Sequence record: NZ_KX832927.1
Strand: one strand, 5' to 3'
Length of the DNA stretch: 64,000 nucleotides
DNA from: a plasmid
This document shows, one piece after another, positions 41,601 to 62,600 of the stretch. Within the stretch, counting starts at the first letter, position 1. Every line of letters begins with the position of its first letter. The position numbers were made by a program.

Positions 41601-44600
41601 CCACCGTTCGAGCGAGCGCGGAACTGCGTTACCGTAGCGCCGCGACGTTCCACCAGCCAGGTGTTGCGATGCGTTTGCATAGGTTGTTCTCTCACAACAT
41701 TCCCCTGCTCGTCCTTAACTTCAACGACGACAGTTACAGGCTCGCGCCCGAGGTTTGTCATGACGATCTCATCCCCATACTTGGCTTCACTTTCACCAAT
41801 GGCTCTTTCAAGATCCACGCCCCAGATGGTGCGTTCCAAACCGCTCTTGTCACGGATGAAGGCAAAGTAGCTGAGCTCGTTGTCTTCGTTATGCTCATAA
41901 GGAGCTTTACCGTGGGCAATCAGAGTACCGGCAATGGATTTTTTACGATTCTTGGAATCGAGAACCTTGTTATTCACCTTCATAGGCTCTTGCTGAACAG
42001 GCGCTTTGGCCTGGACAGGAGCTCGTGTCGGTGCAGCGGCTTGTTGATACTGGGGTTGCTCTTTCTCAACGCCCAGATAATCACCAACCTCGCTCAGGCA
42101 CTGTTTAAAGTCCCAGTTATTGAGCCACATCAGCAGCTCAAAACCATCATGATTGGCACCGCATGTATTGCATACGCCGCCACCAGTCAGGTGGGCATCC
42201 TTGAACAGTCGGAAGCCATCTTTCCCGCCGTGGATAGGACAAGAAACATGACGACCAGGTTTACGGAGAGCTGGTTCAAGATGGGGCGCTAGGGCCGCCA
42301 GGATGAATAGCCAGTTTCCGTTTGCAGCTTCACGAACGGTGTCAGCTTTGTAGTAAGACATAGGTTTTCTCCTTAGCGTGAACCCCAGCATCGAGGCTTC
42401 CTTAAACCCCCGTCGCCAGGGTTTTAAGGAAACCCCGACACCGGGAGAATGTGCCAAGGAGGCTCCCCAGCCGGGGAGAACTCCCCGGCGAGGGGTTTAA
42501 AAAGGTCGCCCCCGAAACGGAGGCGAATTTTGTGAATATCACAAGCACAAATGAGTGCCATCTTCCGAGGCCATCATGATTGTGACATCTGCGGTTACAG
42601 GATCTGACTTAATCACAACCTCAGTGGGTTTGAAAAAGCCATCTACAGTGGGCATGGGGTAATAAAGACGAATCTTTCCCCAATTCTTGTTGTCGGTAAA
42701 AGCGACCTTTGTTTGAGCAACACAAAGCTGCAAAAACATGAAAAGGAAGTCTTCTACCGAGTGCTTACCATCTGCACCAAATACTCCATCGACAATTGCC
42801 GGGGTCACTGCCACATTGGTCAGGAAACCAGCTTGTTTACCGATGGAAGATTGGTCCACCAGCAGACCATCATTGATGGCTTGTTGACGGATTTGGGCGA
42901 GGTCCAATTTAGCTACTTGGTTCATAAGGTGTACTCCAAAGTTAATGGGTACACCTACCCCGTGCGGGGAAGTGTACCCGCATGGGTTATTGAAAGGTCA
43001 CGGCCAAAGCCGAGCTTTAAGGTTCCGAGTTTTACGCTGGCTGAATGCGCCAAAGAACGGTCGGAGGAAACGAGTCAGCGACACGCTTCACATTCGCGTA
43101 AAGAGTGTCCTTAAAGACACGCTCTAAGCGACGACCACCTTGACGATAAACCAACTTAAAGTCTTGGAATTTGTTCATGGATACCTCCAGAAATAACGGG
43201 AGGTATCTCCAGCAGGAGATAGACTCCCGCAGGGATTAATAAATTAACGTTAATTTGCTGTTTGTTTTTGGCGACCAGCTATCGCACGCTTTCGCCCTCA
43301 GGGAGGACAAAATCTGCTTACTGATGGCTTAACCATGAGTAAGAAGACTTGGGAAGTAAAGCAGGGGTTTCCCCCTGCCTTGTTATGCCGCTTTGAGGTG
43401 GCGAGAGAAAAAGTCCCTGGTTTGCTGGATAGCGCCCCGGAGAAGTTCTCGTCTGTAGCCAGCGTAGCTCTTGTCATCACTGGCAACGGTCAAGCCGTGC
43501 AGACTCTCTTCACCCAGGACAATCTCGTTTTCACGAGAGAGTACCTCAACACGTAGGCCAAGCACTCGCTCTTTCCCTTCCAGGATAGAACAAATTGTTT
43601 GGTCTCTTACTTCGTCATCCCAGTGGCCCATATCGAAATCCCGCTCAGGGAGTTCAGTAACACGCACCAGGTAGTTTTCAGTGGCCCGTTCCCAAACCAC
43701 TTCATCTTCGCATGGAGAGGCCTCGATCAGCGAGTACCCGTCCGCTTCGAGCTTCTTGGAAAGACTTTTTACATCATCCGCCAGCTCCAGCACAAAGCGT
43801 TCCCAGAGGTCTTGCCAGCGCTCGACCATATCCTGGTTAATCCCTTCAATGCCGGTGCCAATCATGGAATCATCATCAGGGAAGATCCCTGTGAAGTCCA
43901 CGTTGTCGTCGATGTTCATGCAGTTCCAATGGCTGTAGTGATGCCCGTGACTATTCCGAGTAATGGACAGGTCACAGGAACCATATTCGCGGAGGACAGA
44001 AAGCATATTCTCAATGTCTTTCTGTGCCATCAGGTTCTTCACGCGGCTGACAGCATCCACTTGGCCGGGCTCAGTGCTGAATAGGCGATTCATGAGAGCT
44101 TTGACGTCATCAACGCTCAAATCCCCGTAGAAGGCTACGCCATCCCCCTGGCAGTATCCGAGACTGTACTCAATCGTCAGATCATCCGGGTATCCACACT
44201 TAACCAGTTCGTTTTGAAAATGCTGTTTAATCATTGGTATCTCCTTAATTTCAGAGGGAGACACCATCCCCTCAGGGACCGATGTCCCCCGTGGGGTTAA
44301 TGTTTGGGTTAAGAAGCCTTGCGGCTTAATTCAGTATCAAATCGAGGACCTTTGAGAACCGCAGTTTTCATAACCTCGAAGTTTCTTGGGTAACGCAGCT
44401 TTGAAACTGCGCCAGCTCGGATGTCGGCAGCCTCACTTGGAGAGACTAGCCTTAACCCTTCGCTGGTTTCAGCGTAGAACCAACCGGCATAACGCTCATA
44501 GGCATTCTGCTGGTACTGTTCAGTCGCCATATTCTTCCGGATCGCCTCTGTTAAGGCCTCAACAACACCGTCATCTTTCGTGATGATGTTGAAAACATGA

Positions 44601-59600: not shown

Positions 59601-62600
59601 CACGCGCTCGAATACGGGGGTAGCCGAATCGAGATAGGGTTGAAGGACGGATTGCCCTACAGCCTTGGTTTGCAACCAGTACAAACAAAACCCTGTCAGA
59701 ATGGAGGCAGGGGCCTCTTTGTCTGTGACGTGCTCGTAATGACCAGCTTGAGCCATATAGCGAGCAACCTCATTCAGGGTCTGCGACGTACCGGGGAAGA
59801 GTTCCATCATGGCCCGTTCTATGCGGCAGTCCTCCAAAACGTTGGACAACTCAGCATGAAGACCTCTGCGGCGCTCAACACCAAAGTCCGTAAACCGGAC
59901 ATGGGCTGCTTCATGGGCCAAATACCCCCAGACAGCATCCATGTGAGGATAGTCGTCGGGGATATTCGGAACCACGATGGTCTTACCATCGGTGTATGCG
60001 TCATCGTTACCGATGGCGACTTTGACACCGAGTTTTTCACCATAGGCTGCGGCCACGATTGGTAGAGCGCTGTAAATGGTGCGTTTTTTGGACATATCTT
60101 TTCTCCTGGTAGGGAAGGAGATAGTCCACCCCTGGAGGGAATGGCTATCCCCTCCGGGTCGGTTTAGTTGAAGTGACTATTAGAAGAAATAGTCGCCATC
60201 GTCGTCAGTTTTAGGCAGCTCCTGGTTGAGAGGCTCCTCTGTCGGCTCCTCTTGGACAGGCTCTTGCTCTACCGGAGTTTCCTCAGGCAAAACCGGCTCA
60301 TCCTCAACATCAACGCGCTCTTCTCGAACCACATCACCGGCATTGGATTCATCTTCCGATTCACCCTCGCCTCGTTCTGCAAAACTCTTGAAGAAGTTGT
60401 CGATGTCTTCATCCAGGTCAACAGCGTTACCACCGCTGTTAGTCTGTTCTGATTGAACAGATTCAGTACCACCTACCTGTTGCTGCTTGGTTTCGCCACC
60501 CTCTGTTGCAGGGATAAGCTCACCGGCTTTATCGCTTTTCTGTTCGGCCTTTTCATCTTTAGAACGGTCCCCCATCTGGGCTCCCGAACCGCCAATGTCA
60601 TTAGCCATGCCCTCTACAGTAATCGAGCCATTGGCATACTGCTCGATGCGGTCCCTCTCGCTCATGATCAGCACTGCGGCCACGACCTGATAAAAGAAAG
60701 GCGCAACGATGTTTCGGCCATCGGCATGTTGCTCGTATCCCCGGAGGGTTTGGTCGAGCAGCTTGACCAGAGGGTTAAAAGCGCTGTTCAGGAAGCTAAG
60801 CCCATCCACCTTGTCGCGGATGTTACGGAGTGTCTGCCGAGTAGTGACCGCACATTGGTCTCGACCGGCCAAACGTTCCATATAGAACTTATTCGCTTCC
60901 TGAACCACTTCGGAGATGAGATCGTCACCCAAGCGCTCAACCTTGCGGTTAAGGCGTTTGGCGTTGGCCTCATCTTCGTTCACAGGCTGGATCATGAACA
61001 CCTGGTACTCAAAGCCAATCCGCTCCTCGACCGTTTCCTTTGGAAGGGCTCCGGCACGGATAGCTCGTTCATACTCAGGGTTCTCCTGACACCATTCATC
61101 CACGGCTTTGTTGTAACCTTTGATGAAATCCTGTTTCAGTTGGTTAAACTGAAAGTTTATGTCATTCAGCTTGTTACAGATTTCATCGGTCTTGCTGACG
61201 GGTACGGCAAATCCGTTCATGAACGGCATACCGAATTTCAGCAGGAGGCGACGAGTTTCTGTTTTCAGGCGATGAAAGCCTTTCAGCTTAGCCGGATCAC
61301 AGATCTTCTTACTTCCCAGTTGAGCTACTTTCTCAGGTGGAATTTCACCACCCTCGCCCAGCTTGAGATCAGATGCAGACAAACGGGTTTGTCCACTCCA
61401 GATGTCAAAGTCTACGTGGATAACACAGAGGCTTTGTAGATGGTTCACTTTAGTCATGATGCACTCCAAAAAGTTGGGGGCGCACCACGTCCCGAACCGG
61501 GCGGATGCGCCCGGTTGGGCTAGTAAATTAACGTTAATTTGCTGTTTGTTTTTGGCGACCAGCTATCGCACTTTTCGCTCTCCGAAGAGAACAAAATCTT
61601 GCTTTCCGTTGGAGACTCCCAGAATCCCCAAGGGAAAGCGGGGGAAAATCCCCCACTCACCAGTAGAACGTCTCTACTTCTTCCGGCAAATCATCAAGAG
61701 GAGCAAGCACGTCCTCATCAACAATGTACCGTGGCTTCACAGAGCCAGTAACCGTTACACGGCACCGCTCTGATGACTTCTCTCTGTACTGGTCAACATC
61801 CTCAGGCTTCACGCCTGACGCCTTATCAGCCAACAGCTTTTTGTAGTCTACCCGGCCAGCCGCTTTGTATCTCGTTACCATCACACCGCAGTAGTCGGCA
61901 TGGAAGTATTCCCCCATGAGGGACTTCATGGTGTCGAGATGAGGCTTTTGCCTTTCTTGAAGCTCAGACAGTCGCTGTTTCAGCTCCTGAATCTCAGCAT
62001 CATAGAGGCGGTATTCCTCAGCAGCAGCAATCCAACGGTTGACCTCTTCACCTTGCGGTATGTACAGGTCTCTCTCTGGATCTTTGTCGGGCTCCTTCTT
62101 GTCTACTACCTGTTGCCAGAACTTTTTAGCCTCGGCCAAGATTTCTTGAATCATGGCTTCGTCTCGGAGTATTGGAAACTCCTGAATCTGACCTTCAAAG
62201 TAGAAGACTAACCAGCCTTGCTTGGCCCCCGTTACCAGGAGCTGGTGTTGCACCTGCGGGTAATAAAGCTGGTATGCCTTGCTGTTTGCTTTCTCAGCAC
62301 AAACATCTTCCCAGACAGTCGCACTCGGGCTTTTCAGCTCGACGGGCTCCCCGTTATCTCTCAGGCCATCCAGGGAGGCCCTCATGAGCGGGTATTGAAC
62401 CGATTCGACACAGGCGGGGAGCAGCATGTCATCATACTTCTCCTCGAAAGCGCGTCTTGCAGCATCTTCGTTTTCTATCCCCCGGCGAACCAGCGGATTA
62501 AGACTCAGATCGACTTCACGCGCATACCCAGTCTTCTCGGCCCACAGTCTCCATCGTGTTTTGTACGGAGACCGATTGAGCAGGATAGCGGCGTCAGTGG

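Follow-up and report, generated by a model that had tools for sequence, protein, structure and literature searches.

The backbone of an IncC plasmid (sequence record NZ_KX832927.1) contains several copies of a non-coding repeat set before runs of minus-strand genes. The question raised by this locus is whether the repeat acts as a double-stranded binding site for a master transcriptional activator, as a single-stranded DNA structure, or in messenger RNA. We analyzed a window of 64 000 nucleotides from this plasmid. Our results show that the repeats form a conserved modular leader in which selection has acted on the single-stranded fold of the gene-sense strand. Most likely this leader functions in mRNA rather than as DNA bound by the known master activator.

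Copies of the repeat and their placement

The first-pass annotation listed six copies (R1–R6), and all of them are found where it placed them in the IncC backbone. A 32-nt core is identical in R1, R4 and R5 (43256, 57708 and 61540) and recurs with three mismatches in the R2 copy at 49512; zero matches are expected in shuffled sequences. The R3 copy at 53294 is more diverged. The degenerate R6 copy (46365–46404) was recovered by the covariance model in two runs (E = 0.024 and E = 0.006). The 16-nt palindrome AAATTAACGTTAATTT is indeed restricted to R1 (43241) and R5 (61525). The GACAAAATCT(T)GCTT block attributed to these two copies is present in both, and the 53294 copy has it too. A GC hairpin flanks each copy as annotated, but it precedes the core in the gene sense, where the annotation had it following.

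Each copy opens a minus-strand gene run, 70–85 nt 5′ of the first start codon; after R1 this first gene is an ORF of 47–48 codons (vcrx120, start 43177). The operon boundaries that published RNA-seq predicts fall at the elements, in agreement with the idea that they partition the backbone into units. The small GGGTTA hairpins noted between downstream genes were confirmed: the pattern AACCC-N2-9-GGGG matches 26 times (3.9 expected), nearly all in the gene sense, although several of these calls overlap at the same site. Two further family members lie just past the end of the window, one 5′ of vcrx089 and the other in the vcrx087 5′ UTR. A complete IncC plasmid carries exactly eight copies, all in the gene sense, in the 25 kb between acaB and the primase gene, and its tra operons have none.

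The family extends well beyond IncC plasmids. The pAQU-type plasmid pVPH2 has nine copies, all in the gene sense, and many Gamma- and Betaproteobacteria have the element in ICE-like regions. In a genome scan, the stem is present at 99 of 119 loci from these two classes, while just one of 10 pattern matches in a viral collection has it. Element-encoded ssb and primase genes are the commonest neighbors, and the small primase partner Vcrx123 is also among the most frequent in distant elements. Copies occupy orthologous positions in distant elements, 5′ of the vcrx087, vcrx089 and vcrx094 homologs.

A modular leader selected as a folded single strand

Read in the gene sense, a GC hairpin (H1) comes right after the upstream stop codon and is followed by CUUUCC. 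A variable hairpin (H2) with closing pairs CUUUCC/GGAAAG and a short A/U-rich linker (RN-AUU) lead to H3, a hairpin of free sequence. In H4 the UAGCUGG loop is invariant, whereas the 4-bp stem that carries it can have any sequence; the single-stranded box AAAYAAWCAGYA stands 2–3 nt 3′ of H4. One to three more hairpins follow (H5–H7), the last of which sequesters the Shine–Dalgarno site. From the box to the next start codon preceded by a Shine–Dalgarno site, the median distance is 77 nt (interquartile range 70–101 nt). Internal copies have H1 and H2, and promoter-proximal copies begin at H3. Minimum-free-energy folds give the H1–H7 layout in both IncC and Sulfuritalea-type copies.

All copies in the window are on the minus strand. 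The full R1 leader (43177–43385) runs from the vcrx119 stop (43383) to the vcrx120 start; it contains H1 at 43361–43378, the core of 4-bp stem, UAGCUGG loop and CA-box at 43246–43289, and the palindrome at 43241–43256, and its Shine–Dalgarno site is covered by the terminal hairpin. The full R5 leader (61457–61656; core 61530–61573, palindrome 61525–61540) similarly fills the space from the exo stop (61657) to the start of vcrx094 (DUF3150; 61457). The other full leaders are R2 (49443–49675; core 49502–49545) 5′ of vcrx112, R3 (53223–53414; core 53284–53327) 5′ of vcrx107, and R4 (57637–57830; core 57698–57741) 5′ of vcrx098, the last downstream of an AcaCD promoter. R6 (46314–46430; core 46365–46404) is a short, promoter-proximal copy in the vcrx114 5′ UTR.

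Compensatory changes in a helix across distant relatives are the mark of a structured cis-regulatory RNA, and H4 has them: its positions pair in 96.9% of cases, with 54 double-compensatory cells and 4–5 pair types per position, compared with only 27–59% pairing in shuffled and slid controls. Within the window, the R3 stem is a compensatory GAGG/CCUC and the R2 stem is GCGG/CUGC, which includes one G·U pair. This pairing throughout, while the sequence changes freely, is unlike the behavior of a double-stranded DNA operator. About 102 of the 111 distinct copies have an H3 hairpin 0–5 nt 5′ of H4, its sequence unrelated between copies (mean z = −1.9), and an RN-WUU linker precedes H3 in 34 of the 45 copies that have a GRAAAR motif. 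The folding strand can be identified as well. Stability favors the sense fold over the antisense one (p = 5e-4), and stems of three Watson–Crick pairs plus one G·T (nine) outnumber those with one A·C (three).

Relation to AcaCD and transcription of the array

The first-pass annotation offered two readings, of which the first was that the repeats are activator boxes analogous to those of AcaCD/SetCD; this one is not supported. The published AcaCD box (TGCCCAAAAAGGGCA-type) is a different sequence from the core. A scan of the window for the AcaCD motif (TGCCCAAAAAGGGCA core then ..CAG.G) finds it at 38532, 46469 and 57870, never in a repeat core, and the published ChIP-exo sites map to these same three positions, apart from the repeats. 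The boxes of the vcrx114 promoter (46469–46483, minus strand) and the vcrx098 promoter (57870–57884, minus strand) are distinct from R6 and R4. Among the 17 published AcaCD ChIP-exo peaks, none lies upstream of vcrx089, 094, 107, 112 or 120, which leaves five of the eight copies without one; the peaks near vcrx087, 098 and 114 are separate boxes, the only ones in the vcrx087–125 array. The AcaCD/SetCD boxes, which belong to IncC plasmids and SXT/R391 elements, are present on the same plasmids as the repeat and control the same gene array, with three repeat copies 90–150 nt downstream of an AcaCD box, yet boxes and repeats differ in both sequence and location.

Published expression data, all from pVCR94, an IncC plasmid other than that of the window, place the repeat in transcripts. 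Start sites from 5′-RACE lie 0–5 nt 5′ of H3 in the vcrx087 and vcrx114 copies, the latter at about 46423–46425, 5 nt before H3 of R6. RT-PCR with a vcrx094 primer yielded products for vcrx087, vcrx089 and bet. As bet is located upstream of R5, transcription must extend across R5, and also across R7 provided that all products stem from a single molecule; H1 of R5, and probably of R7, is read through. Genes vcrx087–125 are all near zero in an acaCD deletion mutant and high with AcaCD, and transcript levels do not drop at module boundaries but rise three-fold after R1. Processing with stabilization, or a promoter that has escaped notice, would explain this rise no less well than antitermination. 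As in other cis-regulatory RNAs, the element is transcribed and has a fixed position relative to start site and start codon.

The second earlier reading proposed structured single-strand promoters or priming sites. Its single-strand part stands, as shown by the selection on the fold, while the Frpo-type promoter version is disfavored. The strand that folds is the sense, mRNA-like strand and not the template; mapped start sites are at the foot of H3 with tight spacing to the start codon; an RT-PCR product spans R5 at least and probably R7; and expression depends on AcaCD in ordinary cultures. In addition, we found no promoter-like pair of −35/−10 hexamers, and several short hairpins in place of a long imperfect one. 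A leading-region location next to oriT is not seen in pSD_174 (173.7 kb), where mobI and oriT are at about 2.5 kb and the array is at 98–123 kb.

Comparison with known elements

The JUMPstart/ops leader (RF01707) is the nearest relative in layout. Both are sense-strand elements in the 5′ leaders of long operons, and both have a covarying stem of 4–5 bp, a loop starting U-AGCUG and a 12-nt single-stranded box 1–3 nt downstream. Many repeat copies have GGCGGTAGCTGG where ops has GGCGGTAGCGTG. However, the loop is 7 nt in the repeat and 10–11 nt in JUMPstart, the boxes are AAAYAAWCAGYA and GGCGGUAGCGUG, respectively, and unlike JUMPstart the repeat occurs 8–9 times per mobile element, set between further conserved hairpins. 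The repeat does not match the ops box GGCGGTAGnnTG: TAG..TG alone is kept throughout, with a spacing 1 nt shorter, and only some copies have GGCGGTAG. The two covariance models do not detect each other: the repeat does not reach the Rfam gathering threshold of RF01707, which gives no match to it even at E ≤ 10 and scores 62 bits on the E. coli galF-rfbB leader used as positive control.

Lambda nut sites and rrn boxB-boxA elements pair a small hairpin carrying a conserved loop with a linear box. They occur shortly after promoters, with a further, internal position in rrn operons, and act in nascent RNA. The repeat shares this plan and the promoter-near and internal placement and would likewise act in nascent RNA, but has no sequence similarity to boxA or boxB. 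The ompA-type 5′ UTR and the RNase E processing of pap and similar operons resemble the repeat in having a start site at the foot of a hairpin and an intercistronic RN-WUU linker between stable stems; such 5′-terminal stabilizers and RNase E systems lack the invariant loop-and-box module.

Frpo/ssi elements (F, ColIb-P9) and the IncN CUP repeats precede establishment genes such as ssb and anti-restriction genes, and like the present family they are repeated, co-oriented and non-coding. Frpo is a long template-strand hairpin that mimics a promoter, whereas the repeat consists of several short sense-strand hairpins with the start site upstream and is far from oriT. CUP repeats, also unlike it, are double-stranded promoters with repressor sites.

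Proposed role and alternatives

We tentatively favor, at somewhat less than even confidence, a role in RNA-level operon punctuation and polarity suppression, by JUMPstart/nut-type reloading within the AcaCD-driven array. The site of action would be the transcript of this 25–28 kb array, where the H3–H4–box module would form the 5′-proximal domain of each message, its 5′ end made either directly at AcaCD promoters or by cleavage in the RN-AUU linker. Serving as a JUMPstart/nut-like reloading signal, the module may let transcription and first-cistron translation pass the long, structured, terminator-like module boundaries. The invariant loop and box could be read by RNA polymerase together with a host factor, by the ribosome, or by a protein that the element encodes. 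As for a trans-acting factor, none of the 72 IncC proteins scanned is RfaH-like or has a NusG/KOW domain, the head of the array showed no arginine-rich protein of the N type, and no complementary sRNA is present on the plasmid. H1 has strong stems with a CUUUCC tail, and in a simple scan for terminators (GC-rich stem, then ≥5 U in 8 nt) the R1 hairpin is the only one to pass; because the U-tracts are this short, there is possibly little intrinsic termination to suppress.

With RNA polymerase left unmodified, the leader could also be an mRNA cassette for processing, stabilization and translation standby, which we consider possible though on the unlikely side. RNase E would cut the RN-AUU linker between H2 and H3, so that H1–H2 protects the 3′ end of the upstream message and H3 gives the downstream one a base-paired 5′ end; H4 and the CA-box would be a ribosome standby site or enhancer for a first cistron whose Shine–Dalgarno site is sequestered. 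The start sites of primary transcripts at the foot of H3, the linker kept in 34 of 45 internal copies, the last hairpin covering the Shine–Dalgarno site or start codon, the match of predicted operon borders with the elements, and the transcript rise after R1, where no promoter is known, are all consistent with such a cassette. It does not account for the 7-nt loop and the 12-nt box, which stay invariant between IncC and betaproteobacterial elements.

Another reading is a riboregulator responding to a ligand or protein, in which H4, the A-rich box and CAGC would form a small H-type pseudoknot aptamer whose state sets the downstream hairpin over the Shine–Dalgarno site. Invariant nucleotides confined to loop and tail, with variable stems, are typical of small riboswitches; loop GCUG is complementary to box CAGC, with the Y of CAGYA keeping a G·U pair; and the last hairpin resembles an expression platform. 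All establishment modules would then answer one signal, such as free Ssb, incoming ssDNA or a metabolite, and ssb and primase are the commonest neighbors. We nevertheless regard this as unlikely. Loop and box are invariant, so the second helix of the pseudoknot shows no covariation; in two variant copies the pairing is lost uncompensated. About 70 nt and two hairpins separate the core from the Shine–Dalgarno site, and no Rfam riboswitch model scores, including preQ1-I, whose topology we take the proposed pseudoknot to resemble.

Selection for structure on one strand, frequent adjacency to primase, Vcrx123 and ssb in distant elements, and leading-region type gene content would also suit an ssDNA initiation site on the transferred strand. 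A sense-strand hairpin with a CTG-containing loop would be read by the toprim primase or DnaG, making the modules quickly duplex in the recipient. This appears improbable for copies that are restricted to one 25-kb array and not plasmid-wide, that lie 50–95 kb away from oriT, that in several element families are fixed just after mapped start sites when promoter-proximal, and that keep tight start-codon spacing with a sequestered Shine–Dalgarno site.

A modified form of the activator-box reading would make the repeats double-stranded DNA sites, either promoters or operators, at which an AcaCD-induced activator or repressor of a second tier acts, with the 16-bp palindrome as a possible operator in three copies. 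The downstream units are AcaCD-dependent without AcaCD peaks, transcripts jump after R1, and the perfect palindrome is conserved in sequence in IncC, pVPH2 and one Photorhabdus element. This is very doubtful given freely covarying stems, no sigma-70-like promoter in any copy, most copies lacking the palindrome, transcription through R5 at least and probably R7, and a start site upstream of the promoter-proximal copies. MITE-like remnants or functionless recombination scars, as several near-identical copies and one copy partly converted to another's sequence in a different IncC plasmid might suggest, are hardly credible in view of the uniform orientation, the orthologous positions in distantly related elements, compensatory changes spanning two proteobacterial classes, and alignments that showed, by eye, neither terminal inverted repeats nor target duplications.

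Rfam 15 and the literature searched hold nothing resembling the leader, and a hairpin-rich leader before establishment and anti-defence gene blocks of IncC resistance plasmids and many related mobile elements is apparently undescribed so far. If the repeats do act as polarity-suppressing punctuation in the array transcript, the outcome would be that its promoter-less modules all remain under the control of AcaCD.

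Repeat copies in the IncC gene array

Between 43 and 62 kb the window matches hundreds of conjugative plasmids of the IncC (A/C2) group at 100% identity; one of them, pKOX-86d, types as IncC, MOBH and MPF_F. Every gene at about 40–64 kb is carried on the minus strand, including bet, exo, two methylases, a toprim primase, a DUF3150 protein, a VWA protein and a PAPS-reductase-like protein. In pVCR94 numbering the array corresponds to vcrx092–vcrx122. It holds most of the published hde (host-defence-evasion) operon, vcrx089–093 (PMC7498323); the window ends inside ssb, so that bet, exo and part of ssb are present while vcrx089 and vcrx090 lie outside. 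The expression, ChIP and transcription start data considered here all come from pVCR94, in which the stretch from vcrx095 to vcrx098 differs from that of the window plasmid by a 604-bp indel.

The 32-nt core recognized in the first-pass annotation recurs exactly at 43256, 57708 and 61540 and with three mismatches at 49512, where none is expected by chance. The further copies it had listed were also recovered, a diverged one at 53294 and a degenerate one at 46365–46404. Sharing among these copies (R1–R6) extends far beyond the core in gene-sense alignment, and each ends 70–85 nt before a start codon, that after R1 belonging to the small ORF vcrx120, from 43177. Two extra copies lie just beyond the window, one upstream of vcrx089 and a short form in the vcrx087 5′ UTR. 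A covariance model of the core detected eight copies and no more in a complete IncC plasmid of 173,673 bp. They all lie in gene sense, within the interval from acaB to the primase gene, and there are none in its tra operons or at its other promoters of AcaCD, the IncC master activator.

The resistance-island part of the window carries exact direct repeats between 27142 and 33223, of 300 nt (27142 and 29183) and 155 nt (30003 and 33069), and a tandem 62–63-nt unit from 30095.

Anatomy of the leader

Alignment of seven orthologous leaders with MAFFT and RNAalifold recovered H4 alone, because the variable hairpins misalign, and per-sequence folds were used in its place. Folding each copy as sense RNA gave the same layout every time. 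H1, a GC hairpin directly 3′ of the upstream stop codon, is followed by CUUUCC, and the variable hairpin H2 is closed by CUUUCC/GGAAAG. A short linker, typically AG-AUUUU, separates H2 from H3, the RN-AUU form being present in 34 of the 45 GRAAAR-bearing copies. After H3 comes H4, a 4-bp stem with the loop UAGCUGG, and then the box CAAAAACAAACAGCA (the CA-box), which in some copies has a palindrome on its 3′ side. The next element consists of one or two hairpins, many beginning AACCC...GGGG, and the last hairpin masks the Shine-Dalgarno sequence or the start codon. H1 and H2 are missing from the copies behind the vcrx087 and vcrx114 AcaCD promoters, and the published 5′-RACE starts of these two genes, transferred onto these sequences, fall 0–5 nt 5′ of H3. 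In R4 (the vcrx098 copy) both H1 and H2 are retained, and the AcaCD box of this copy is upstream of it.

The palindrome, AAATTAACGTTAATTT, is found within the window only at 43241–43256 and 61525–61540, as had been claimed for R1 and R5. It always stands directly after the CA-box, occurs in three of the eight IncC copies (the third at about 5185 of the collected locus L002), and its sequence is kept in the Vibrio plasmid pVPH2 and a Photorhabdus element; it might act as an independent operator for a protein. Over the H2/H3 segment, R1 of the IncC plasmid pSD_174 matches the vcrx089 copy and not R1 of the window (L002 28220–28320 versus window 43246–43330), a pattern suggestive of gene conversion among the copies.

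Another motif, the small hairpin AACCC-N2-9-GGGG, is repeated as well, with 26 matches (several of them overlapping calls of one and the same site) at 39370–63795 of the window where 3.9 are expected. Nearly every match lies in gene sense, with minus-strand examples at 44286, 49015, 52476, 54077, 57059, 62716 and 63783. Many lie in short intergenic spacers inside each module, usually followed by a hairpin over the Shine-Dalgarno site, and H5 of many full leaders is this same hairpin.

Conservation across conjugative elements

The distantly related pAQU-type plasmid pVPH2 carries nine copies, every one of them in the sense of the gene that follows it. A scan of one genome per species with the pattern TAGCTGG-N7-AAAYAAWCAGYA matched at least 119 loci, often several per contig, and the matches listed include Vibrio, Shewanella, Marinobacterium, Photorhabdus, Edwardsiella, Idiomarina, Methylomonas, Sulfuritalea, Tepidimonas, Comamonas, Rhodocyclaceae and others. 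Among the matches listed, the four bases 5′ of the loop pair with the four 3′ of it in 99 of 119 loci, through more than 15 stem sequences. In 40 distinct sequences, drawn from phylogenetically non-independent copies and selected on the three inner pairs, pairing of H4 reaches 96.9%, with 54 double-compensatory cells, as against 27–59% in shuffled or slid controls; the outer pair, outside the selection, is paired in 36 of the 40. The invariance of loop and box is partly by construction, as the genome scan required both, though a covariance model found few variants in 0.73 Mb of related loci. About 102 of the 111 distinct copies carry H3 at 0–5 nt 5′ of H4; the H3 sequences are unrelated, and the folding energy is about 2 SD below that of shuffles. 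Distant copies in Sulfuritalea-type elements have the complete H1–H7 layout, with CUUUCC/GGAAAG and a sequestered Shine-Dalgarno site among its features. As a negative control, the TAGCTGG-N7-AAAYAAWCAGYA pattern gave 10 matches in 2.9 million viral contigs, only one of which, an ICE-like fragment, has the stem; the element is absent from phages.

The promoter-proximal copies of the Sulfuritalea-type elements come after a palindromic box, GCGCAC-AAAA-GTGCAC, which in three betaproteobacterial loci (L008, L091 and L006) is about 95 nt upstream, approximately the place of the AcaCD box in IncC; it is a candidate site for the FlhDC-like master activator of these ICEs. At another betaproteobacterial locus, a group II intron domain (Rfam RF00029, 66 bits; L090 3798–3874) adjoins a copy.

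AcaCD sites and transcription of the array

The AcaCD motif has been published with 17 ChIP-exo peaks (Carraro et al. 2014; PMC4207636). Motif scanning and spacing to the published ChIP-exo sites place the minus-strand boxes of the window at 57870–57884 (vcrx098), 46469–46483 (vcrx114) and 38532–38546 (vcrx128), the intervals of 11,401 and 7,937 bp being those between the published sites. The repeats are not AcaCD boxes, and the proposal that they are activator sites of this kind is unsupported, since the motif sites lie elsewhere and no ChIP-exo peak falls at the vcrx089, vcrx094, vcrx107, vcrx112 or vcrx120 leaders. A fourth match at 63956, apparently inside ssb as judged from the pVCR94 ssb–bet spacing, is probably due to chance. 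The search for −35/−10 promoter elements was negative: a sigma-70 scan over 43–62 kb returned one unrelated site versus 13 expected, and zero in the repeats.

In published RNA-seq, vcrx087 to vcrx125 are all nearly silent without acaCD and strongly on with it, and the acaCD-dependent set includes units without any AcaCD site (PMC4207636). The operon borders predicted in the same study fall exactly at the repeats, in agreement with the earlier view that these elements partition the backbone into transcription units. From cDNA primed in vcrx094, vcrx087, vcrx089 and bet were amplified (Roy et al. 2020; PMC7498323). Because bet is upstream of R5, the transcript crosses R5, and R7, a copy beyond the window, is also transcribed through if the three products represent one molecule, as those authors infer. 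The leader is thus transcribed, either as the 5′ end of primary transcripts or as the junction between modules that are promoter-less and still AcaCD-dependent. The ORF right after R1, vcrx120 (47–48 codons; 43035–43177, minus strand), is among the highest of the array in the published RNA-seq, at about three times the level of the gene before R1, though no promoter is known there (PMC4207636).

Relation to known RNA families

Rfam 15, searched with 24 kb at E<=1, with a single copy at E<=10 and with 17 distant loci at the gathering threshold, gave only chance-level matches, and literature searches under sequence strings, IncC antitermination, intergenic repeats and RfaH with IncC returned no description of the element. 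Sigma-54 and elemental-pause consensus sequences, compared with the core by eye, had the wrong spacings. The closest known object is the JUMPstart/ops leader. A 41-mer of the JUMPstart/ops sequence occurs in essentially all Escherichia coli genomes, lies between galF and rfbB, and scores 62 bits against RF01707. The JUMPstart consensus has a stem cUGG/CCAg closed by a u.g pair, the loop AGCUG(U)UAA, and the ops box GGCGGUAGCGUG immediately after; the element described here combines a stem of 4 bp and the loop U-AGCUG-G with a box of 12 nt that lies 2–3 nt further, likewise in the leaders of a very long gene array, and many copies read GGCGGTAGCTGG, which resembles ops. Membership of the JUMPstart family was nevertheless rejected: the models miss each other, the ops consensus is not kept, and neither a NusG/RfaH paralogue nor any RNA-binding domain was found by Pfam in 72 IncC proteins.

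A search of the full plasmid for a trans-encoded complementary sRNA gave only short matches, inside coding regions. An 11-nt stretch complementary to the CA-box (AUGCUGUUUGU), at about 96243 of pSD_174 on the minus strand (L002 about 2237), just 3′ of the sfx/vcrx085 stop and overlapping the traN end, is probably coincidental.

Models for leader function

Where an unbiased stem has three Watson-Crick pairs, the remaining position is G.T in nine cases and A.C in three. The sense fold is 3.7 kcal/mol better than the antisense fold over 111 copies (68/111; p = 5e-4), and the distance from the box to the next start codon preceded by a Shine-Dalgarno sequence has a median of 77 nt (interquartile range 70–101 nt; 60–79 nt in 47 of 103). 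Together with the starts at the H3 foot, the read-through in RT-PCR and AcaCD-dependent expression in ordinary culture, this strand bias and spacing point to an element that acts in the transcript and argue against a template-strand promoter of the Frpo type. Of the single-strand reading in the first-pass annotation, the folded single strand is upheld, and the Frpo-like promoter is disfavoured.

We infer, at a little below an even chance, that this conserved, sense-strand, structured leader works after initiation, as operon punctuation and as a JUMPstart/nut-like signal for polarity suppression or reloading. Cleavage in the RN-AUU linker, probably combined with the reloading signal, would let each module's message begin with H3, H4 and the box, as primary transcripts do. 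Nearly as likely, and itself doubtful, is a role in processing, stability or standby that leaves RNA polymerase unaffected, which explains the three-fold transcript rise after R1. A riboswitch-like pseudoknot, in which the loop GCUG would pair with CAGC of the box across an A-rich linker, is possible but improbable: loop and box are invariant and so show no covariation, and the pairing is broken in two variant copies. Slightly less probable again is a sense-strand priming site on single-stranded DNA; ssb, the toprim primase and a small downstream partner are the commonest neighbours in betaproteobacterial elements, but the copies are limited to one array, keep a constant position downstream of promoters and are tied to start codons. 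Double-stranded operators or promoters are quite unlikely, and mobile-repeat debris very unlikely.

More broadly, we tentatively suggest that H3–H4(UAGCUGG)–CA-box may be a new and widespread class of regulatory RNA in ICEs and in conjugative plasmids of the MOBH type. It could be a remote relative of JUMPstart that reloads a factor for processive antitermination, or else a small sensor built on a pseudoknot. In both cases it would place all establishment and anti-defence modules (anti-restriction, Ssb-Bet-Exo, methylases and primase) under one post-initiation switch. If so, this motif family, present in two proteobacterial classes, would join the short list of leaders tied to long-operon expression. 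The element is also a practical sequence marker of such gene arrays in unannotated ICEs. Multidrug resistance is spread to a major extent by IncC plasmids and related elements, and the genes behind the leaders enable the plasmid to survive restriction and CRISPR in a new host, as published work describes for the hde operon. One conserved RNA-level signal per module, if true, would account for AcaCD control of about 40 promoter-less genes and would offer a common target for disabling establishment.
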